A DNA stretch of 64,000 nt from Escherichia coli (lineage in GTDB: Bacteria > Pseudomonadota > Gammaproteobacteria > Enterobacterales > Enterobacteriaceae). Under the pieces are notes generated by a model. That model was not told the origin of the DNA. It saw only the letters and a program-made list of their open reading frames with translations, and did not search any database. The translations under genes were made by a program, and so were the position numbers. The stretch is taken from assembly GCF_024223415.1 (NCBI RefSeq), contig NZ_CP100500.1; one strand, written 5' to 3'. Position 1 is the first letter of the stretch. The number at the start of each line of letters is the position of its first letter. Of this stretch, positions 2,032 to 13,903 are shown in pieces.

Positions 2032-4017
2032 TTAATTTGGGGTTACGATATTCACCCACAAATCGAAATTATCCAGACAGGCGATAATTTCTTCCAGTTT
2101 CGCGCCATTGCCAATAATTTTGGCTTTCTTCGCTTTTACCAGATCTGCCATTTTGGCTTGTCCGGTCAGCACGGCGTGCAGATCTTCACGGCTGATGTAG
2201 AAAGAGGCGTCGGCTTGCGGTTGCAGTGTTTTACGGTAGTTAAGCACGCTATCGTTCAGCGTCAGGTTGAGGTTATCGCCGTTGCTCATATTGAAGTTCA
2301 GGCTGATATTTTTACCCGCGGCTTTTTCGCTATCGAGGCGAACGGCCATAAAGTCGAACAGCATTTCGACCGACATTCCGCGAATGGTGTCCGGGGAACC
2401 GGTGGTGCCGTGGCTGAACTTATGCACCCCTTCGCGCAGCTCTTTCGCGCCGGTCAGGTAGAAACCGCGCCATGTGGCGGACTCGGCCTGATAGCCCAGC
2501 TGTTCAAAGTTATTCGCTTGCAGATTCTTCGCGACCTGGTCACCCGGGTTGGCGGCAATCACCTGTTTCAGTAGTTCTGCCGACCAGCGGTAATCACCTT
2601 GCTTGTTCGCTTCTTGCGCCAGGTTGATGACACGGGCAGAACCGCCCAGCGCCTGCACGTAACGTTTACCCATCTCCACCTGACCATACGGATGTAGGTT
2701 AGCCGGGTTACCGTCGTAATAGCCAAGATAGAAGTTATACACCGCGCGGGCGTTGTGGCTGACAGAACCGTAATAGCCGCGGCTGGCCCAGTTATTGGCA
2801 AGCGCAGGCGGCAGCTTAATCATGTCGCCGATTTCATTCATGGTGTAGCCCTGGTTCGCCAGGTGCAGGGTCTGGTCGTGAATGTACTTGATAGTATCGC
2901 GATATTTACCAATATAATCATTGATATGCTTATTGCCCCAGACCGGCCAGGTGTGCGGCATAAACAGTACTTCCGCGTCGTTACCCCACATATCCAGCGT
3001 TTCGTTCAGATACTCGGTCCACTTGCTGGTGTCACGGGTTTTCGCGCCGCGCAGAGTGTAGAAGTTGTGCAGGGTATGCGTGGCGTTTTCGGCGGTACAC
3101 AGGGCTTTCAGGGCCGGAATATAGAAGTGCATTTCGGCTGGTGCTTCGCTACCTGGGGTCATCAGGAAGTCAAACTCCAGGCCGTCGATAATCATCTTCT
3201 CGCCAGTTCTGACGATAGTTTTAGTCGGTGCAATAATGCTCGGGTCGCCCGTTGCCAGCGTCACGCCAAGGCCATTACCCACGTTGCCTTGCGCGTTGTG
3301 TGGCAGTAACAGACCGTAAGAGTAGAGCGCACGGCGGCTCATGATGTTACCCGCCAGCACGTTTTCGCTGATGGCTTCGTCCATAAAGCCAGCAGGGGCA
3401 ATCACCTGAACTTTGCCGGATTTAACATCGGCTTCAGAGATAATACCTTTCACGCCACCATAGTGGTCGGTGTGGCTGTGAGTGTAGATAACGGCAACAA
3501 TCGGTTTTTGCGGACGATGCTGGAAGTAAAGGTCAAGTGCGGCTTTTGCGGCAGGTGGCGTCACCAGCGGGTCGATAACAATAATGCCTTTCTCGCCCTC
3601 AACGAACGTAATGTTAGAGATATCCTGGCCGCGCACCTGATACATTTTATCGGTGACTTTGAACAGGCCAGAAATGCCGTTGATCTGCGACTGACGCCAC
3701 AGGCTGGGGTTTACGGTTTCCGGCGCTGCGGCATTAATATCAAATTTGTAATCGTCCGCGCGGTAGTAAACTTTACCGTTCGCATCACGCAGAATACCTT
3801 CATCCAGCAGCGGGGCGATAAATCCACGCTGGGCATCGTCAAAATCCTGACGATCGCTAAACGGTAATGATTTGGCGTAATTCTGATTAACCTGTTGGGT
3901 ATATTGAGTGGCGGCTTTCGCTTCCTCTTTCGCGTTAGCGGTATTTACCATCATGCCGCTGGCGGCAGTTAACGCAATAACAATCCTGCTCAAACGGAAT
4001 AACCGAGAGTTATTCAT
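2032..4017 (-). CDS. yjcS: Periplasmic alkyl/aryl-sulfatase, metallo-beta-lactamase fold (YjcS)
   Basis: ORF 2032..4029 (665 aa); signal peptide; HSHTDHYGG metal-binding motif; matches recalled YjcS. Alternative start at 4029. Confidence 0.88.
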
Positions 4018-4307
4018 ATAAATCTCCATTTATCATTTATGTCGTAAATATGTAATCCATGCAAAATACGTCATTTAAAGCTGGCGTTATCATAATTGGG
4101 AAATTGCGACTTTAATAAGTGGAAGTGTGAGCGGAACGAACCATTTTATTAGGCATTTGTGCTGAAGATGGAAAAGTACGGCATATTTATTACTATCATC
4201 AATAATGTGACCTGACTTATATTTTTATTATTTATATTACTTTCAGCTTTCACTTCGACAAGAAGTACGCACAATGATTAATCAGATGAATGATGCGGAG
4301 TGTAACC

Positions 4308-5015
4308 ATGAAACCCGTCGTGCTGGTGGTGGATGATGACACGGCTATCTGCGCACTGTTGCAGGACGTGTTAAGTGAACATGTCTTTACGGTTTCAGTC
4401 TGCCATACCGGACAGGAGGCCATATTGCGTATTGAGGGCGATCCTGACATTGCGCTGGTGGTGCTGGATATGATGCTACCCGATACCAACGGCCTGAGGG
4501 TATTGCAGCAAATCCAGAAACTGCGTCCGACATTGCCGGTGGTGATGTTGACCGGCATGGGCAGTGAGTCTGATGTGGTGGTCGGGCTGGAAATGGGCGC
4601 GGATGATTACATCTGCAAACCGTTCACCCCGCGGGTGGTGGTCGCACGACTGAAAGCGGTGTTGCGACGGGTTGGTGCGCTGGCGGTTAATGACGAGAAA
4701 AGCGCCGGGCTGTCATTCAATGGCTGGTATCTCGATACCATGCGCTGCCAGTTGCACAATCCGCTTCAGCAACATGTCGAGTTAACTCAGGGCGAATATG
4801 GCTTGTTACTGGCTCTGGCGCAAAACGCGCGTCGGGTATTGAGCCGCGAGCAGTTGCTGGCGTTCACCCACAGCGACAGCGTGGAGGTGTTTGATCGCAC
4901 CATCGACGTATTAATCATGCGCTTACGACGCAAAATCGAACTCAACCCGCATCAGCCGATGTTGATTAAAACTCTGCGCGGTCTGGGGTATGTCTTCGCT
5001 GCCGACGTGCATTAA
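4308..5015 (+). CDS. OmpR/PhoB-family response regulator (receiver + winged-helix)
   Basis: ORF 4290..5015; GGAG 5-8 nt upstream of ATG 4308; receiver residues VVDDD, VLDMMLPD, CKPF; C-terminal winged helix (RTIDVLIMRLRRKIE, LRGLGYVF). Not a K-12 gene at this position. Confidence 0.85.
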   Translation: MKPVVLVVDDDTAICALLQDVLSEHVFTVSVCHTGQEAILRIEGDPDIALVVLDMMLPDTNGLRVLQQIQKLRPTLPVVMLTGMGSESDVVVGLEMGADDYICKPFTPRVVVARLKAVLRRVGALAVNDEKSAGLSFNGWYLDTMRCQLHNPLQQHVELTQGEYGLLLALAQNARRVLSREQLLAFTHSDSVEVFDRTIDVLIMRLRRKIELNPHQPMLIKTLRGLGYVFAADVH

Positions 5016-6013
5016 TCCGACATTTCTGTTTGCAGCTCTTCCAGCGTTTTCGCCCCGTCGATGGCATTGGCGCATAACAGGCTTGCCCGCGCGCAGGCGT
5101 GTGCCAGTTTGATGCTCTCGGTAAGCGTCCAGCGTTCATGGCAGCCATATAAAAATCCGGCACAAAATGCATCGCCCGCGCCGACGCTGCCGATAATTTC
5201 CCGTTGTTCTAACTTTTGCGAAGGGATCCACACGCCGCCCTGTTCTGGGGTCTCTCCCCACGCCCCTTCCGGGCAGTGGATCACCACCCGCTGGCGCACG
5301 CCCGCATCTAACAGTTCACGCGCGGCGGCAGCAATATGCGCGATATGCGGTTCGCCGTTGGGTAACCGAATTTCCAGCCCGCTAAACTCCCCGGCCTCCA
5401 GTTCGTTAATTACCAGATAATCCAGATGGCGCAACGCGGGCAGCACCAGTGGCTGATAACGCGGATCGCCCTTACGGGAGACCAGGTCGAGTGAGGTTTC
5501 AAAGCCAGTATCACGCATTTGCGCCAGCAGGCGTGCGCTACGGGTGCCGTAAACATCGTCCGGCATATCCAGGCTGTCGAGCAACAGTAAATAGCCGAGA
5601 TGGAAAATCTTCATGGTGTTATCGAGCTGATCGAACGCCGGAAGATCCAAAAGTCTGTTTGCACCCGGCGAATGGAAAAACGTCCGCTGCCCGCTTGGGT
5701 CTGTCATCACCTGCGACATCGACGTCGGGGCAAAGGTAGTGCGCTGCACATGCTGACGATTGACGTGATATTGCTCAAGCATCGCCATGATGTAATCGCC
5801 GTCGCTGTCCTGACCGATTAGCCCAACCGCCTGTAACGGCAGCCCGGTGCGCATTTTCGCCAGCGTCAGCAGGACGTTAAGCGGCGCACCGCCGGTGGAG
5901 CGTTCGCTGTGGGTGATCTCCGCCAGCCAGCCGCGCTCTGGCCACTGGATAATCTGATGGACGTGGTCAACCAACATATTGCCTGCGGCGATAATCCCTT
6001 TACGCTCCATCAT
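5012..6013 (-). CDS. PfkB/ribokinase-family sugar kinase
   Basis: 333-aa ORF; N-terminal glycine-rich GIIAAGNMLVDH and C-terminal GAGDAF anion-hole motif typical of the PfkB family; 4-bp overlap with upstream aldolase gene. Confidence 0.85.
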   Translation of the reverse strand: MMERKGIIAAGNMLVDHVHQIIQWPERGWLAEITHSERSTGGAPLNVLLTLAKMRTGLPLQAVGLIGQDSDGDYIMAMLEQYHVNRQHVQRTTFAPTSMSQVMTDPSGQRTFFHSPGANRLLDLPAFDQLDNTMKIFHLGYLLLLDSLDMPDDVYGTRSARLLAQMRDTGFETSLDLVSRKGDPRYQPLVLPALRHLDYLVINELEAGEFSGLEIRLPNGEPHIAHIAAAARELLDAGVRQRVVIHCPEGAWGETPEQGGVWIPSQKLEQREIIGSVGAGDAFCAGFLYGCHERWTLTESIKLAHACARASLLCANAIDGAKTLEELQTEMSD

Positions 6014-6870
6014 GCCTGCCCCGCACTGCCAAAAATACGCATCTGTTGTGCAACCGTATCGCTGATGGCGGCTTCCACTGCCAGCAGTAACTCGGCAAAC
6101 TCGTCATACATCGGCTGACGGTGCGCCATTCGGGCCTCAACGGCAGCCAGCGCCGCTTGCGACATGCCAGTGTAGAAATTGATTTTGTGGATACCCAGTT
6201 CGATGGCGCGGCGGAAATCGGCATCGCTAATCCCTGAGCCGCCGTGTAATACCAGCGGGATAGCAGCCTGCTGGCGGATAGCGTCGAGGCGCGGGAAATC
6301 GAGTTTCGGTTCGCCGCGATATTTGCCGTGTGCATTGCCAATCGCCACGGCCAACGCGTCAATGCCGGTACGGTCGACAAAATCACGCGCCAGTTGCGGA
6401 TCGGTAAACAGGGATTCATCGGCATGACCATAGAGTGCACCGCCTTCGTCGCCACCCACCGCGCCCAGTTCAGCTTCTACCGATACGCCAACGGCATGGC
6501 ACATTTTCACCACTTCCCGCGTCTGGCGGACATTTTCTTCATACCCCAGCGTGGAGCCATCAAACATTACCGAGCTGAATCCCAGCCGCAACGCTTGCAC
6601 CACCGATTCAAAATGCAGTCCGTGATCGAGATTTAACACCACCGGAATGGCATGACGCGCCGCTTCAAATTTCACTGTCTCGACCAGGGAATCCAGCGAG
6701 ATATATTTAAAATGTACTTCGGCAATGTTGATAATAAAGGGCGAACGTTCTTGTCTGGCAGCAGCAAACAAGGCGCGTAAAAAGTGCGAGTCCAGCACAT
6801 TAAACGCACCTAACGAATAGTGATGTTCGCGGGCATGTGCCAGCCCTTCAGCGAGATAAATCAATGGCAT
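6010..6870 (-). CDS. Class II ketose-bisphosphate aldolase family (GatY/KbaY/FbaA-like)
   Basis: 286-aa ORF; N-terminal region and metal-binding His pattern resemble class II tagatose/fructose-bisphosphate aldolases. Confidence 0.8.
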   Translation of the reverse strand: MPLIYLAEGLAHAREHHYSLGAFNVLDSHFLRALFAAARQERSPFIINIAEVHFKYISLDSLVETVKFEAARHAIPVVLNLDHGLHFESVVQALRLGFSSVMFDGSTLGYEENVRQTREVVKMCHAVGVSVEAELGAVGGDEGGALYGHADESLFTDPQLARDFVDRTGIDALAVAIGNAHGKYRGEPKLDFPRLDAIRQQAAIPLVLHGGSGISDADFRRAIELGIHKINFYTGMSQAALAAVEARMAHRQPMYDEFAELLLAVEAAISDTVAQQMRIFGSAGQA

Positions 6871-6884
6871 AACGTTATCCTTAT

Positions 6885-7568
6885 TCAGCGGAACTGGCGG
6901 TATTCGTTACACAATACCAACTGTGCAGGTTCGTCTTCGTCAATCAGGTTGTAGCGGTCCAGTGGCTGTAAAAAGTGGTTATCGTGGTCGTCGTCATTGA
7001 CAGAAGAGACTTCGCCAACCAGAACATCGCCAAAGCCGGTTTCCGCCCAAAAGCTGTGATACAGGCCGGGCGGCAGGCAGATACTTTCGCCGGGAGACAG
7101 GCGCAACTGAGTGCCTGCAGTATGTTTCTGGCGGCAGCCGTCTATCACCACCGTAACGTCACTATCAGCCGTTTGCTCGTTACTATCGGCATTCCACAGT
7201 TCAACAATTAAATTACCGCCGCCGCGATTGATAATGTCCTCACGCTTACGCCAGTGAAAATGCATTGGCGTGACCTGCGCATCGCGCACATGCATGATCT
7301 TCTCGGCGTAACATTTCACATACGGCATTCCTTTTGCTGAGCCGTTACGTAGGGTAAACAGCGTCAGCCCGTGTGCTGCAAAGTTGTTGCGACCAAAAGC
7401 GGTAACATCCCAGCCGAGTTTAAGATCAAAAACCTCCTCCCACGCGGCGGTGTCGAGCTGCTGCCATTGAGCAGGCGAGAAACTGGCAAAGGGCGGCAGA
7501 TGTACGTCATGTTGCGAAAAGAATTGCCGTGTATGGCCGAGAATGTCGTTTATAGCGGAGCGTTTCAT
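6885..7568 (-). CDS. Cupin-fold sugar isomerase, D-lyxose/D-mannose isomerase-like
   Basis: 227-aa ORF; resembles the structurally characterised D-lyxose isomerase of E. coli O157:H7 (Z5688), recalled from memory. Confidence 0.65.
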   Translation of the reverse strand: MKRSAINDILGHTRQFFSQHDVHLPPFASFSPAQWQQLDTAAWEEVFDLKLGWDVTAFGRNNFAAHGLTLFTLRNGSAKGMPYVKCYAEKIMHVRDAQVTPMHFHWRKREDIINRGGGNLIVELWNADSNEQTADSDVTVVIDGCRQKHTAGTQLRLSPGESICLPPGLYHSFWAETGFGDVLVGEVSSVNDDDHDNHFLQPLDRYNLIDEDEPAQLVLCNEYRQFR

Positions 7569-7622
7569 CGAAAGCGTTCTCCTTAGCGGTGACCGGGCAG
7601 CTGCGCCGCCCGGCGTGTGGAC

Positions 7623-8564
7623 TTATTTCACCGTCCAGCCTTTGTAATTGCCGACGTTGTTTTTATCGATCATCGTCACCGGGATCAGCACCGGCTCTTT
7701 CGGCGCAGGTTTGCCCTGCAAAATGTCGTAGCCAATTTCCACCGCTTTCGCTGCCATCACCTGGGGATCTTGCGCCGGAGTAGCGACAAACAACGAGTTC
7801 TCACGCTTGAGCGCCTCTTCGGCGTCCGGGCTTCCGTCCACACCGACAATAAAGAACTCGTTACGTTGCGCCTGTTTTGCTGCCAGATCGGCACCGATTG
7901 CGGTGGGATCGTTAATCGCAAATACGCCGTCGATCTTCGGATTTGCCGCCAGCAGTCCCGTCATTACCTCCAGCCCGCCTTCACGACTGCCTTTCGCGTT
8001 CTGGTTGTCAGAGAGCACTTTGATGTCAGGATGGCGTTTAAATTCAGTCTGGCATCCTTCGACGCGGTTTTGCACGGCGGATACCGGCGGGCCGTTGATG
8101 ATCACCACATTGCCTTTGCCTTTCAGGCGATCGGTGATGTATTTACAGGCCATTTCGCCCGCCTGGGTATTATCGGAGGTGATGGTGGCATCAGCACCTT
8201 CTGCCGCTACGTCAACCGCGACGACTACGATCCCGGCATCTTTCGCCCGTTTCACCGCCGGGCCGATCCCTTTTGAATCGGCAGCGTTGAGGATAATCAT
8301 ATCGACGTTAGCGGCGATAAAGTTGTCTATCTGCGACACCTGCTGACCCAGATCGTAGCCGCTGGAAACCAGCGTCACTTTGACGTTATCGCCTGCCAGT
8401 TTGCGTGCTTCCAGCTCCGCGCCTTTGGTGATCTGCACGAAGAACGGGTTCGCCAGATCGCCCACCGTTACGCCTATTGATTTCAGTTCTTTCGCTTGGG
8501 CGAACGGTGCTGCGGCCAGCAGTGCGCCTGCACAGAGCGCGGTCACTAAGGGCTTCAATCTCAT
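7623..8564 (-). CDS. Periplasmic sugar-binding protein of ABC transporter (RbsB-like)
   Basis: 313-aa ORF; cleavable signal peptide (…AAAPFAQA|KE); type I periplasmic binding protein fold signatures. Confidence 0.85.
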   Translation of the reverse strand: MRLKPLVTALCAGALLAAAPFAQAKELKSIGVTVGDLANPFFVQITKGAELEARKLAGDNVKVTLVSSGYDLGQQVSQIDNFIAANVDMIILNAADSKGIGPAVKRAKDAGIVVVAVDVAAEGADATITSDNTQAGEMACKYITDRLKGKGNVVIINGPPVSAVQNRVEGCQTEFKRHPDIKVLSDNQNAKGSREGGLEVMTGLLAANPKIDGVFAINDPTAIGADLAAKQAQRNEFFIVGVDGSPDAEEALKRENSLFVATPAQDPQVMAAKAVEIGYDILQGKPAPKEPVLIPVTMIDKNNVGNYKGWTVK

Positions 8565-8582
8565 GCTGTATTCCTCATGTGT

Positions 8583-9557
8583 TTATGCACTTTGATGGTG
8601 TCGGGTACGGTATTTGTCGATCAGCACCGCAATGATGATCACCGCCCCTTTGATCACCAGTTGCCAGAAGTAAGAGACGCCCATTAAGGTCATGCCATTG
8701 TTGAGCGTGGCGATAATTAGCGCGCCGACCAGCGTGCCGGTGATGGTGCCGATGCCGCCGACAAAACTGGTGCCGCCGAGGATCACCGCTGCAATGGCAT
8801 CCAGTTCGTAACCCATGCCTAAGTTGCCGTTGGCGCTGTACAGCCGTGAGGCGCTCATAATCCCGCCAAGCCCAGAAAGCAGGCCGCTCATGCCATAAAC
8901 AAACAGCAGCACCAGCCAGACCTTAATGCCGGTAAGACGCGCCGCCTGCATATTGCCGCCGACGGCGTAGATATGAACGCCAAGCGTGGTGCGGCGCAGA
9001 ATAAACCAGCACACCACGATCACCGCCAGCGCAATCACCACCAGCCATGGGACCGGCCCGAGATAGTTGTTGCCTATCCACTCGAAATTAATGTTGGAGT
9101 TGATAACCGTGGTGCCGTCCGCCAGCAGATACGCCGCCCCGCGCAGCGCCGTATAGGTGCCAAGCGTAACGATAAACGGTGGCAATCCGGCAAAGGCCAC
9201 CAGCGCGCCGTTGAACAGCCCCAGCAGCAGGCCGAGCATCAGCGCTGCCGGGATCGACAGCATGGCGAACTCAGGGCTAAGGGAGACGACCATCGCCGCC
9301 ACCGCTGTGGTGCCGAGGATCGAACCCACGGAAAGATCGATCCCGCCGGTCAAAATGATGAAGGTCATCCCCGCCGCCAGAACAATGTTGATCGATGCCT
9401 GGCGGGTAATATTCAGCAGGTTGCTTTCGGTAAAAAAGTTTGGCGCGATAAAGCCAAATACCGCCACGATCAGAATCAAAATGGGCAAGATGCCGACCGT
9501 TTGCATCAGATCGCTCATCAGCATTTTTTTGGCAGAGGTTTTTGCAGAGGTCGTCAT
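8583..9557 (-). CDS. ABC sugar transporter permease (RbsC-like)
   Basis: 324-aa highly hydrophobic ORF with multiple predicted TM helices; position between SBP and ATPase genes. Confidence 0.85.
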
Positions 9558-11074
9558 GAGGTTACCGCCTGGGAATGGGCGTCGTTGACGCCAGTCGCTA
9601 AGGTCATAATGTTTTCCTGGGTGATGTTTTTGCCGTTTAACTCACCGGCAATGCTGCCTTCGCGCATCACATAGACGCGATCGCTCATTCCCACTATCTC
9701 CGGCAGTTCGCTGGAGATCATCAGGATCGCCACGCCCTTGCGCGCCATCTCGTTCATGATCCGGTAGATCTCACTTTTGGCGCCAACGTCCACGCCGCGG
9801 GTGGGTTCATCGAGCAGTAAAATGCGCGGGCCAATCGCCACCCAGCGGGAGATCAACAGTTTTTGCTGATTGCCGCCGGAAAGCCCGCCCGCGCGTACCT
9901 GGGCATGAGGCACGCGAATGTTGAGCAACTTAATGGCGTCATCGGAAATGGTTTGCGCTTTTTTGCGATTGAGCATTCCCCAGCGGGCATCGCGCTCCAG
10001 GGTTGCCATGGTGATGTTTTCGGCTGCTGCCATTTCAAGGAATAAGCCTTGTTCTTTGCGGTTTTCGGTGAGAAAACCAATGCCAAGATCGATGGCTTCG
10101 CGCGGGGAGTGGATCACCACCGGTTCACCATCGACTTCAATCATTCCGCCTGTCGCTTTCCGCACGCCGAAGATCAACTGCGCCAGTTCGGAACGTCCGG
10201 CACCTACCAGTCCGGCGAGGCCAACAATTTCGCCGGAACGCACCAGCAGGCTACTCGGCTGGACTTTGCCGCCGTCGGTCAGGTGGTGAACATTCAGGCG
10301 GGCTTTACCGAGCGGGATATCGCGCTCTTTATTGAACAGATCGCTCAGTGGCCTGCCGACCATCATCCGCACCAGCTCCCCGGCATTGAGGTTATCGCGG
10401 GTCAGGCTGCCAACGTATTGCCCGTCGCGCAGCACGCTGACGCGATCGGAAAGCTCATACACTTCCGCCATACGGTGGCTGATGTAGATAATCGCCATCC
10501 CTTCATCGCGCAGCCGCATAATCAGTTCAAACAGACGGTGAGTTTCACGGGAGGAGAGGGCAGCGGTGGGTTCGTCCATCACCAGAATGCGGCTGTTGCG
10601 ATGTAGTGCGCGGGCGATTTCGACCTGCTGTTGCTCGGCAATGGTCAGCGTCATGACCTTATCGCTGGCGTTAAACTGCGCGCCGAGGCGGTCGATCACT
10701 TTTTGCGCCTGCACTAGCATCTCTTTACGCTGCACCAGCCCGCCGTGGGAAAGCTCGCTGCCGAGAAAAATATTTTCTGCCACCGACAGATTCGGTGCCA
10801 GCTGCATCTCCTGATAAATCAGCGTAATACCGGCGCTTAAGGCATCTTTTGGCGTGCGAATGTGAAAGGGCTTGCCGTCTATGAGGATCTCGCCGCTGGT
10901 GGCGGTATACGCCCCCGCCAGCACCTTCATCAGCGTGCTTTTTCCCGCGCCGTTTTCCCCCATCAGGGCATGGATCTCGCCAGGGTAGACCGTCAAATCC
11001 ACCCCTTTGAGCGCATAAAATTTGCCGAAGGCTTTGGCAATATTGCGCATCTCCAGAACTGGCGTGCTGTTCAT
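9554..11074 (-). CDS. ABC sugar transporter ATPase with duplicated nucleotide-binding domains (RbsA-like)
   Basis: ORF 9554..11131; likely start [14 protein letters not shown] at 11074; two Walker A motifs ([18 protein letters not shown]) and two LSGG signature motifs. Confidence 0.85.
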
Positions 11075-11187
11075 GGTGGACTCCTGCGAGGTTGTCGATA
11101 TCAGCACTCCATCACAGGAAAGTAAATGCAAAATGTCAGAAGCCGTTCATATTTGTCATATTGCGATTTTTCTTCACGGAGCGTGAT

Positions 11188-13449
11188 ATGGCGCACCCCG
11201 GACGTCATTTTTTTGCCAGCGCGCGCGGGCGATTGCTGCTTTTGAATTTGCTGGTGGTGGCGGTGACGTTGATGGTCAGCGGCGTGGCGGTAATGGGCTT
11301 TCGTCATGCCAGCCAGATGCAGGAGCTGGTGCAGCAGCAAACGGTGGATGATATGACCGGCAGCCTGAATCTGGCGCGCGACACGGCAAACGTGGCAACG
11401 GCGGCGGTGCGATTGTCGCAGGTGGTGGGAGCGCTGGAATATAAAGGCGAAGCCGAGCGGTTGCAGGAGACACAGCGGGCATTAAAAAGCTCGCTTGCAC
11501 AACTGGCGAACGCGCCTTTAGCGCAGCAGGAAGCCGGGCTGGTGACGCGCATCATCACGCGTAGCAACGAACTGCAAACCAGCGTCGGTGGAATGCTGGA
11601 GCGCGGGCAAAGGCGGCATCTGGAGCGCAACGCGCTGTTAAGTTCGCTGTATCAAAACTTAAGTTATCTGCGGCATCTGCAAAAAGTCACTCACGCGCAA
11701 GATGATATTTTGCTTAACGAGATGAACCGACTGATTGTTGCCGCTATTGCCACCCCCGCGCCGCAGGCGATTATTCATCAACTGGTCGGGGTAATGTCTG
11801 CGTTGCCGACCCACAGCGATACGCCGTTGGTTAACACGCTACTCAATGATTTTAATCGTGAACTGCGTAAACTCGCGCCGCTTTCAGCCGCTCTGGAGCA
11901 AAGCGATCTGGCAATCAGCTGGTATATGTTTCACATCAAAGCGCTGGTGGCGATCCTCAATGGCGACATCAACCGTTACGCCGAACAGGTGGCGACGCTC
12001 TCCGGTCAGCGCGTGGCGCAAAGTTACCAGGATTTGCGCTCCGGCGAGAGGCTGATCATGATTTTCGCCCTGTTAGCGGTGGTGATCACCGCGTTTGCAG
12101 GTTGGTATATCTATCGCAATCTCGGCTCTAACCTGACGGCGATTTCCAGCGCCATGAGCCGCCTGGCGCACGGTGAAGCGGATGTCAGCTTTCCGGCGTT
12201 ACAGCGGCGTGATGAGTTGGGTGAACTGGCGCGCGCCTTTAACGTTTTTGCCCGCAATACCGCGTCACTCGAACGAACGTCACGGCTGTTGAAAGAGAAA
12301 ACCATGCAGATGGAGATTGCCCAAACCGAGCGGCAGGGGCTGGAAGAGGCGCTATTGCACAGCCAGAAGCTGAAAGCGGTTGGGCAACTGACGGGCGGGC
12401 TGGCCCATGATTTTAATAATCTGCTGGCGGTGATTATTGGCAGCCTGGAGCTGGTGAATCCGGACTCGCCAGACGCGCCGCGAATACAGCGGGCGCTGCA
12501 AGCTGCCGAACGTGGGGCGCTACTGACACAACGACTGCTGGCGTTTTCCCGCAAGCAGTCCTTACATCCGCAAGCCGTTGAACTGAAAACATTGCTGGAA
12601 GAGTTAAGCGAATTAATGCGCCACTCCTTACCGGCAACGCTGGCGCTGGAGATTGAAGCGCAGTCTCCGGCGTGGCCCGCGTGGATTGACATCAGCCAAC
12701 TGGAAAATGCCATCATCAACCTGGTGATGAACGCCCGTGACGCGATGGAAGGGCAGACGGGAATCATCAAAATTCGTACCTGGAATCAGCGCGTTACTCG
12801 CAGCAGTGGGCAGCGTCAGGACATGGTGGCACTGGAGGTCATCGATCATGGCAGCGGTATGTCGCAGGCGGTGAAAAGCCAGGTATTTGAGCCATTCTTT
12901 ACCACCAAACAGACGGGCAGCGGCAGCGGGCTGGGTTTGTCGATGGTCTATGGTTTTGTGCGCCAGTCCGGTGGGCGCGTTGAAATTGAAAGCGCGCCGG
13001 GGCAGGGGACAACGGTCAGATTACAGCTTCCCCGCGCGCTGACGGCGGCGAAAAACCTATCGCCAGCGGCAGTAGAACAGGCTTCTGTCAGCGGCGATAA
13101 ACTGGTGTTAGTGCTGGAAGATGAAGCCGCGGTGCGCCAGACCATCTGCGAACAGTTGCACCTGCTGGGCTATTTGACGCTGGAAGCAAGCAGCGGCGAA
13201 CAGGCGCTGGATCTGCTGGCGGCATCAGCAGAAATCGATATTTTTATCAGCGATTTAATGCTCCCCGGCGGCATGAGCGGCGCAGAAGTGGTCAATGCGG
13301 CCCGCAAACTTTACCCGCACCTGACGCTGCTACTCATCAGCGGTCAGGATTTACGCCCCAGCCATAACCCCGCGCTGCCAGACGTGGCGCTGCTGCGCAA
13401 ACCTTTTACCCGCGCGCAGTTGGCGCAGGCGCTGGGGCAAGAGAATTGA
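11188..13449 (+). CDS. Hybrid sensor histidine kinase (2 TM + ~260-aa extracytoplasmic sensor, HAMP, HisKA, HATPase_c, C-terminal receiver; no Hpt)
   Basis: ORF 11092..13449; start MAHPGRHFF at 11188; H-box GLAHDFNNLL; receiver residues LVLEDE, ISDLMLPGG, LRKPF; divergent from the ABC operon with ~113 bp spacer. Confidence 0.85.
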   Translation: MAHPGRHFFASARGRLLLLNLLVVAVTLMVSGVAVMGFRHASQMQELVQQQTVDDMTGSLNLARDTANVATAAVRLSQVVGALEYKGEAERLQETQRALKSSLAQLANAPLAQQEAGLVTRIITRSNELQTSVGGMLERGQRRHLERNALLSSLYQNLSYLRHLQKVTHAQDDILLNEMNRLIVAAIATPAPQAIIHQLVGVMSALPTHSDTPLVNTLLNDFNRELRKLAPLSAALEQSDLAISWYMFHIKALVAILNGDINRYAEQVATLSGQRVAQSYQDLRSGERLIMIFALLAVVITAFAGWYIYRNLGSNLTAISSAMSRLAHGEADVSFPALQRRDELGELARAFNVFARNTASLERTSRLLKEKTMQMEIAQTERQGLEEALLHSQKLKAVGQLTGGLAHDFNNLLAVIIGSLELVNPDSPDAPRIQRALQAAERGALLTQRLLAFSRKQSLHPQAVELKTLLEELSELMRHSLPATLALEIEAQSPAWPAWIDISQLENAIINLVMNARDAMEGQTGIIKIRTWNQRVTRSSGQRQDMVALEVIDHGSGMSQAVKSQVFEPFFTTKQTGSGSGLGLSMVYGFVRQSGGRVEIESAPGQGTTVRLQLPRALTAAKNLSPAAVEQASVSGDKLVLVLEDEAAVRQTICEQLHLLGYLTLEASSGEQALDLLAASAEIDIFISDLMLPGGMSGAEVVNAARKLYPHLTLLLISGQDLRPSHNPALPDVALLRKPFTRAQLAQALGQEN

Positions 13450-13517
13450 GAATCCTCCTCTACTCGTAACAGGCACCTTTGCCTACCTTGTATTAACTTT
13501 GTTGCGAGGCCGAGTTT

Positions 13518-13847
13518 ATGAAACGCCACTCCACGCTCTTTTTTTTCACCCTGCTCACGCTGACCACCGTACCGGCCCAGGCCGATATTATCGACGACAC
13601 CATTGGCAATATTCAGCAGGCGATTAACGATGCTTATAACCCTGACCGTGGGCGAGATTATGAAGATTCGCGTGACGACGGCTGGCAGCGTGAAGTGAGC
13701 GACGATCGGCGCAGACAATATGACGACCGCCGTCGCCAGTTTGAAGATCGTCGCAGGCAACTGGACGATCGCCAGCACCAGCTTGATCAGGAGCGTCGGC
13801 AGCTAGAAGATGAAGAGCGGAGAATGGAAGATGAGTATGGGCAATGA
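13518..13847 (+). CDS. yjdP: Small secreted charged-repeat protein YjdP (109 aa)
   Basis: Signal peptide then RRQ/DDR-rich repeats; matches recalled YjdP, located beside phnP as in K-12. Confidence 0.8.
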   Translation: MKRHSTLFFFTLLTLTTVPAQADIIDDTIGNIQQAINDAYNPDRGRDYEDSRDDGWQREVSDDRRRQYDDRRRQFEDRRRQLDDRQHQLDQERRQLEDEERRMEDEYGQ

Positions 13848-13868
13848 TGTTGGGTATGGAGCAGGCAT

Positions 13869-13903
13869 CGCCCCTCTGGGGAGAGGGGTAGGGTGAGGGG
13901 GCC
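13869..13903. repeat. GC-rich interspersed repeat (cccctctggggagaggggtagggtgaggggg)
   Basis: Near-identical to the motif inside the 22835..22925 palindromic element; intergenic yjdP/phnP. Confidence 0.6.

Follow-up and report, generated by a model that had tools for sequence, protein, structure and literature searches.

A hybrid histidine kinase without an Hpt domain and its distant partner regulator at a sugar locus of Escherichia coli

A 64,000-nt stretch of Escherichia coli chromosome (hereafter the window) carries, at positions 4308-13449, a two-component system split between the two ends of an eight-gene island: LmvR, an OmpR/PhoB-family response regulator, and LmvK, a hybrid sensor histidine kinase that ends right after its receiver with no histidine phosphotransfer (Hpt) domain. 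We favor direct transfer of phosphate from the LmvK histidine to LmvR, with the attached receiver acting as a modulator, and put the probability of this reading at roughly 0.6. The analysis points this way because phosphate transfer in vitro needs no more than two purified proteins, the gene pair is portable between hosts, the pair resembles VirA/VirG, and neither an Hpt domain nor a third gene accompanies it. A preliminary description made from the sequence of the window had the arrangement right, but the split genes, the hybrid kinase, and the lack of an Hpt domain were already in print in 2022-2023: the E. coli O157:H7 system was published as RbfS/RbfR (Liu, 2022, PNAS; PMC9860305) and, with lmuKAIZYX lying between the two genes, as LmvK/LmvR (Yang et al., 2023, mBio; PMC10128022), and both naming schemes appear in a 2024 review. 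The question that is left is a narrow one, direct versus relayed transfer and the role of the receiver, and does not concern a new kind of system; since, in E. coli O157:H7, the system ties type III secretion to the sensing of sugar, its wiring is of some medical interest.

The system in the window is almost certainly identical with LmvK/LmvR (RbfS/RbfR), since the island DNA is 99.2% identical to that of O157:H7 and O55:H7 (with the flanks yjcS and yjdP-phnP in common), the regulator is identical (0 differences in 235 residues from O157:H7 PV15-279), the kinase is nearly so (7 of 753 residues differ from the same strain), and the published operator is present. The window and the published O157:H7 system agree in their eight genes, in the operator, and in being inserted between yjcS and yjdP; they come from different E. 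coli lineages. Copies of the island that are 100% identical to that in the window occur in NCTC9112 and in isolates from pig and poultry.

Phosphotransfer between LmvK and LmvR

The features on which the phosphotransfer argument turns are the following.

4308..5015, + strand: lmvR (rbfR), OmpR/PhoB-family response regulator of 235 residues (Pfam Response_reg and Trans_reg_C; RefSeq)
11188..13449, + strand: lmvK (rbfS), hybrid sensor histidine kinase of 753 residues with no Hpt domain (Pfam; RefSeq)
12406..12408, + strand: phospho-accepting His407 of LmvK, in the H-box GGLAHDFNNLL (codon checked; invariant in 81 orthologs)
13105..13434, + strand: receiver of LmvK, residues 640-749 (Pfam), with Asp689 encoded at 13252-13254 (codon checked)

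In LmvK, Pfam places HAMP at residues 309-357, HisKA at 399-458, HATPase_c at 501-616, and Response_reg at 640-749 of 753, and a hydropathy scan places the two transmembrane segments at about 16-38 and 288-309, all in agreement with the architecture given in the preliminary description; the extracytoplasmic sensor claimed there is present between the two segments, although at about 249 residues by hydropathy and not the roughly 260 stated. HisKA, HATPase_c, and a receiver stand on one chain, as they do in all 25 orthologs scanned, which makes LmvK a hybrid histidine kinase without an Hpt domain and not an 'unorthodox' kinase with one. The phospho-acceptor of LmvR, Asp54, is encoded at 4467-4469 (codon checked). 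A kinase length of 785 residues, as first described, is wrong: it is that of the longest open reading frame, from a TTG at 11092, whereas the annotated and homolog-supported start, the ATG at 11188, gives 753 residues, a length already implied by the intergenic region 11075..11187 named in the same description. The extra 32 codons would cover the LmvR operator and reach within 18 nt of the lmuX start. Published residue numbers (H410/D692; PMC10128022) exceed those of the 753-residue RefSeq protein (H407/D689) by a constant three, and no start codon lies three codons before ATG 11188.

That the protein lacks an Hpt domain after the receiver, as first described, holds throughout the family. Pfam finds no Hpt (PF01627) in LmvK even at E<=10, with 4 residues remaining after the receiver, and none in any of 25 diverse orthologs. 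About 85 orthologous reading frames end 0-22 residues past the aligned end of the receiver, the exception being a decayed copy (L071), and the full-length relatives found with the periplasmic domain as query have one architecture throughout, ending right after the receiver. The eight island proteins were mapped onto the 80 loci kept from 152 genomes with relatives. When the flanking open reading frames of about 80 loci were clustered, no island-specific third gene proved to be conserved; only yjdP, phn genes, and a gene resembling formate dehydrogenase came up repeatedly. The Pfam lists of loci L002-L009 contain no Hpt family, and the matching chromosome otherwise carries ordinary genes (phn, proP, basSR, adi, mel, dcuSR, cad) and, as kinases, only orthodox ones. 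No phosphotransfer gene is thus co-inherited with the kinase in the manner of RcsC/RcsD or CckA/ChpT, and, with no Hpt in the orthologs and no conserved third gene, any Hpt involved would have to be a housekeeping protein of the host.

Two places in which an Hpt might have been overlooked were considered and rejected. Longer relatives of 854-872 residues could have held a hidden domain, but it is a PAS_7 domain, located between HAMP and HisKA, that makes them longer; and the gaps between regulator and lmuK could have held a separate Hpt gene, but their open reading frames are hok-like toxin, fimbrial, outer-membrane, and REP (repetitive extragenic palindromic) sequences. PAS_7 occurs in 13 of the 25 orthologous kinases (for example, L026 10001-12562, L050 4842-7445, and L004 7529-10144), and the kinases of E. 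coli, Citrobacter, Enterobacter, and Leclercia are without it and about 753-770 residues long, a pattern of presence and absence among orthologs which argues that the domain was lost or gained more than once.

The receiver is, to judge from its conservation, functional. Across 81 distinct orthologs, down to 34% identity, D645, D689, and K738 are invariant, position 644 is always E or D, and position 718 is always S or T; mean identity over the receiver is 72%, against 16% in the linker immediately before it. It is this strict conservation of catalytic residues next to a diverged linker that argues for a working receiver, and together with the family-wide absence of an Hpt domain or a co-inherited third gene it argues for a VirA-like direct route. 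VirA is itself a hybrid kinase without an Hpt domain whose receiver regulates phosphate transfer to VirG (PMC4705274). Residues 375-750 of LmvK, which span the transmitter and receiver, match a VirA-like model (E 1e-64), and VirG is the second-best NCBIfam match of LmvR. By this analogy, LmvK His407 would phosphorylate LmvR Asp54 directly with no Hpt protein involved, and the Asp689 receiver would be a phosphorylatable intramolecular modulator and not a step in a relay, either competing for phosphate as a sink or gating or recruiting LmvR.

Published experiments on the two proteins bear on the same point. Purified RbfS passes phosphate to purified RbfR in vitro, an experiment of the kind that the preliminary description had proposed; rbfS deletion abolishes induction by riboflavin, and rbfSR alone transfers the response to C. 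rodentium and to other serotypes (PMC9860305). LmvK has been described as a hybrid kinase with a REC domain, growth on lyxose needs the kinase histidine (H410 in that paper) and D54 of the regulator, and either lmvK deletion or H410A impairs both growth on lyxose and induction of the lmu operon (PMC10128022). The pairing of a kinase and a regulator that lie so far apart, proposed from the window alone, is upheld by this in vitro transfer, by the phenotypes of the His and Asp mutants, and by a footprint on the operator, and comparative data lend it further weight, with the regulator present in 58 of the 64 loci that have enough flanking sequence. Three routes had been offered at that stage, an external Hpt protein, direct transfer, and a third partner, with none chosen. 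Two of them are those that divide the literature, which has direct transfer on one side (Liu, 2022) and transfer 'via an unknown Hpt' in a model figure on the other (Yang et al., 2023; PMC10128022); our analysis favors the direct one.

Several points weigh against direct transfer. The hosts in which rbfSR was tested are enterobacteria that carry Hpt domains in ArcB, BarA, EvgS, TorS, and RcsD, so its portability is compatible with the use of a host Hpt. The invariant receiver aspartate is as much to be expected of a relay step as of a sink, and the matches to VirA and VirG lie far below NCBIfam cut-offs, the resemblance being one of architecture and broad family and not of orthology. The published in vitro transfer used kinase and regulator at 1:10, without a kinetic comparison and with no D689A or receiver-less control reported (PMC9860305), and the receiver aspartate was mutated in neither experimental paper (PMC9860305, PMC10128022). 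LEE (locus of enterocyte effacement) mRNA in mannose is changed by lmvR deletion but not by lmvK deletion (PMC10128022), which hints at another phosphodonor under some conditions. Covariation between the helices of the DHp domain and helix alpha-1 of either the regulator or the kinase's own receiver, which might have told the direct from the relayed route, gave no signal in either direction, those helices being nearly invariant over 64 pairs.

The strongest alternative is a multistep phosphorelay, in which phosphate would move from His407 to Asp689, on to a core-genome Hpt domain (that of RcsD, ArcB, BarA, EvgS, or TorS), and from there to LmvR Asp54. Such a relay would account for the invariance of the catalytic receiver residues in all 81 orthologs and is the route drawn in the mBio model (PMC10128022); RcsC and CckA, which share the hybrid architecture, do use separate phosphotransfer proteins, and CckA is the best relative of the LmvK transmitter both among solved structures and in NCBIfam. 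We nevertheless regard it as unlikely, given that Hpt is found in 0 of 25 orthologs, that about 80 loci from many genera hold no conserved island-specific extra gene, and that two purified proteins are enough for transfer in vitro; a housekeeping Hpt would moreover need specificity for an accessory regulator that is kept across many genera.

It is less probable still, to the point of being improbable, that LmvK is not the main phosphodonor in vivo and acts mostly as a phosphatase or modulator, with LmvR charged by acetyl phosphate or another kinase. The regulator was indeed phosphorylated with acetyl phosphate for electrophoretic mobility shift assays (PMC9860305), but the impaired lyxose growth and lmu induction in the lmvK deletion and H410A strains, the loss of riboflavin induction on rbfS deletion, and the co-occurrence of kinase and regulator across genera all speak against it. 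A decaying, non-functional receiver can be set aside, with 72% mean identity and intact catalytic residues in 81 orthologs next to a linker at 16% and no supporting point found.

The sensor domain and its signal

The input side of LmvK is a periplasmic domain that matches no Pfam family and no PDB sequence, the PDB matches of LmvK being confined to the catalytic core and receiver.

11302..12048, + strand: periplasmic sensor of LmvK, residues ~39-287, predicted as an all-helical double four-helix bundle (AlphaFold model and Foldseek)

An AlphaFold model made with eight diverse sequences as input (predicted local distance difference test score, pLDDT, 86.5) is confident and all-helical. Foldseek with this model returned the TorS sensor domain first, including entries of the TorS-TorT complex, and one of the two bundles aligns to the N-domain of LytS in the XylFII-LytS complex. 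We tentatively place the LmvK sensor in the helical bimodular, TorS-like type, since the predicted fold is that of a helical bimodular periplasmic sensor. Sensors of this type differ in what they read: TorS and LytS respond to a binding-protein partner, whereas McpS binds small ligands directly. The preliminary description's suggestion of a sugar signal agrees with published work, in which mannose and lyxose induce the lmu operon through LmvK/LmvR (PMC10128022), and the periplasmic domain may read the sugar either directly or through LmuZ, the sugar-binding protein encoded in the same island.

Reading sugar-loaded LmuZ in place of the sugar itself would follow the precedent of TorS/TorT, VirA/ChvE, and LytS/XylFII, and the Foldseek matches to TorS and to the LytS N-domain are consistent with it. 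In almost all loci with upstream sequence, the kinase gene is transcribed away from an ABC operon that encodes an RbsB-like protein, and this synteny holds where the catabolic genes differ (a FGGY kinase in L006) or are absent (Citrobacter and Raoultella); LmuZ also has weak TorT and ChvE matches. We nonetheless hold this mode of input to be possible but doubtful. Deletion of lmvK or lmvR causes a colonization defect and deletion of lmuKAIZYX, which includes lmuZ, does not (PMC10128022), a phenotype that disfavors an obligate role for LmuZ; autophosphorylation of purified RbfS is raised by riboflavin with no binding protein present (PMC9860305); McpS offers a precedent for direct binding by the same type of sensor; and the synteny is equally explained if the operon is simply the regulatory target of the system.

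The sugar operon, its operator, and its distribution

Between yjcS (2032-4029) and yjdP-phnP, the list of open reading frames and the RefSeq annotation of a 100%-identical copy give the eight genes of the island, of which lmvR and lmvK are the outermost. The remaining six, and the operator, are as follows.

5012..6013, - strand: lmuK, PfkB-family sugar kinase (open reading frame list, RefSeq annotation, NCBIfam)
6010..6870, - strand: lmuA, class II ketose-1,6-bisphosphate aldolase (NCBIfam NF005284, 575 bits against a cut-off of 406)
6885..7568, - strand: lmuI, D-lyxose/D-mannose isomerase (NCBIfam NF051472, 439 bits against a cut-off of 350)
7623..8564, - strand: lmuZ, RbsB-like periplasmic sugar-binding protein with a signal peptide (NCBIfam best match RbsB, 1e-43)
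8583..9557, - strand: lmuY, ABC transporter permease (RefSeq annotation, NCBIfam)
9554..11074, - strand: lmuX, ABC transporter ATPase of 506 residues with two ABC domains, intact in the window (RefSeq annotation, NCBIfam)
11147..11161, - strand: LmvR operator, direct repeat ATATGA-CAA-ATATGA (pattern scan and published DNase I footprint)

The locus is almost certainly the genomic island OI-167 of E. coli, an operon for D-lyxose/D-mannose uptake and catabolism (lmuXYZIAK) flanked by its own two-component system. The transporter proteins LmuXYZ are nearest, in NCBIfam, to ribose, arabinose, and xylose systems; for LmuZ the ChvE and TorT matches are weaker than that to RbsB, and all three fall below NCBIfam cut-offs. 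Fructose kinase activity has been reported for LmuK (PMC10128022). In O157:H7 PV15-279, lmuX (L090 6025-7545) is cut short by Q486* and carries a pseudogene annotation, whereas the copy in the window is intact, a difference that may be relevant to the weak effect on mannose growth reported for lmuKAIZYX in EDL933.

LmvR activates the operon and, in the lmuX promoter, protects ATATGA-N3-ATATGA from DNase I (PMC10128022); in enterohemorrhagic E. coli (EHEC) it additionally activates ler and the LEE. The footprinted motif is present in the window, in the divergent intergenic region of lmuX and lmvK, as a perfect match that is the only one in the 64 kb at up to 1 mismatch, and it falls within 11075..11187, one of the regions in which binding by the regulator had been proposed from the sequence. 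It is conserved as NTATGA-CAA-WTATGA in 71 of 77 orthologous loci, including the distant L008. No autoregulatory site was found upstream of lmvR, either within 260 bp in 65 loci at up to 1 mismatch or in the window, where the only matches for such a site have 3 mismatches. Scanning the island for promoter and terminator consensus sequences turned up no more sites than were obtained with shuffled sequence. At the other end of the operon, lmvR and lmuK are convergent, as had been described, and the annotation shows their stop codons overlapping by 4 nt (5012-5015). This overlap recurs across genera (L021, L022, L025, L032, L035, L036, L043, L045, L048, L059, and L068), and no terminator-like hairpin is predicted after lmvR or lmuK. 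As a speculation, the overlapping stops, the lack of a hairpin, and the lack of an operator upstream of lmvR might mean that the reported 'induction' of lmvR/rbfR mRNA is in part antisense read-through from the lmu operon.

The system is far more widespread than the published restriction of rbfSR to EHEC O157:H7 and O145:H28 and to O55:H7 (Liu et al.; PMC9860305) would indicate. Of 5426 complete E. coli genomes compared with positions 4030-13900 of the window, 410 carry 80% or more of the island, among them isolates from pig, poultry, fresh water, and baboon. A scan of one genome per species with a 4-sequence sensor alignment found relatives in 152 genomes, and the periplasmic domain alone as query gave 58 matches among 1.84 billion representative proteins. 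The 80 loci kept are nearly all from Enterobacteriaceae (Citrobacter, Leclercia, Kosakonia, Enterobacter, Lelliottia, Raoultella, Phytobacter, Buttiauxella, Cedecea, Atlantibacter, and others), and in most genera the locus adjoins yjdP-phnP. The E. coli gene order, regulator-K-A-I-Z-Y-X and then the divergent kinase, is seen in 51 loci, and there are shortened forms, regulator-Z-Y-X-kinase in Raoultella and a few others and regulator-I-Z-Y-X-kinase in Cedecea. The regulator of the two most distant loci has an internal position, with lmuZ on one side and the catabolic genes on the other. The regulator, where found, is in no locus the neighbor of the kinase, and it persists even in loci whose kinase sensor shows only 24-26% identity. 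In every locus with upstream sequence available, kinase and ABC operon are transcribed divergently. The spread over genera, the conserved operator, and the position next to yjdP-phnP suggest an old locus in conserved synteny, kept in E. coli only patchily, and not an import specific to EHEC, and the genome and locus counts correct the published restriction: the island occupies a common chromosomal site in many Enterobacteriaceae.

Some loci vary in ways that touch the regulator and its surroundings. In some Citrobacter (L002 1-12265, a metagenome contig, and also L011 and L020), the kinase, lmuXYZ, and the operator are kept and the regulator and lmuKAI are absent; in L002, where a type VI secretion Tle3/Tli3/PAAR cassette directly adjoins lmuZ, the kinase is apparently an orphan. 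An open reading frame for a small hok-like membrane toxin lies between the regulator and lmuK (lmuI in Cedecea) in Cedecea and related genera (L077 3073-3375, L084 4960-5259, and L074 3072-3257), and REP-type palindromes occupy the gap between regulator and lmuK in other genera.

A fuller account of the system can be offered as a tentative picture, to which we give distinctly less credence than to direct transfer itself. In this account there would be no 'unknown Hpt': His407 would phosphorylate LmvR in the manner of VirA, Asp689 as a sink or gate would set the threshold, and the TorS-like sensor would read lyxose or mannose via LmuZ, all within an ancestral, syntenic enterobacterial sugar regulon for which the riboflavin and LEE outputs would be secondary co-options.

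Comparison with known systems

Four groups of known systems resemble LmvK/LmvR in part. LytS belongs to a kinase class different from that of LmvK. The match of LmvK to the LytS/XylFII xylose sensor of Clostridium beijerinckii (PDB 5xsd) is to a single four-helix bundle and is one of fold only. TorS/TorT/TorR offers the nearest match to the predicted sensor fold, but sequence identity between the TorS and LmvK sensors is only about 13%, and the TorS NCBIfam models score 138 and 81 bits on LmvK against cut-offs of 676 and 982. TorS has a C-terminal Hpt domain and a four-step relay, whereas LmvK has no Hpt domain, and while TorT is dedicated to its sensor, LmuZ is a transporter component.

RcsC (with RcsD and RcsB) and CckA (with ChpT and CtrA) are, like LmvK, hybrid kinases that end in a receiver without an Hpt domain. 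Their terminal regulators are not of the OmpR family. The catalytic core of CckA is the closest solved relative of the LmvK core (5idj, E 4.5e-40), but the RcsC and CckA systems each have a dedicated phosphotransfer protein, and none accompanies LmvK in about 80 loci.

VirA/VirG/ChvE of Agrobacterium tumefaciens (PMC4705274) differs in that VirA has a phenolic-sensing linker where LmvK has HAMP (plus PAS in the 13 of 25 orthologs) and in that the sensor of LmvK is modeled as TorS-like. The scores of LmvK (219 bits against a cut-off of 647) and LmvR (180 against 344) fall short of the VirA and VirG models, so the two pairs are not orthologs. Like LmvK, VirA is nonetheless a membrane-bound kinase that has a large periplasmic domain and, at the C terminus, a receiver but no Hpt domain, and its system, like the lmv locus, has an OmpR-family partner regulator and an associated periplasmic sugar-binding protein of an ABC transporter.

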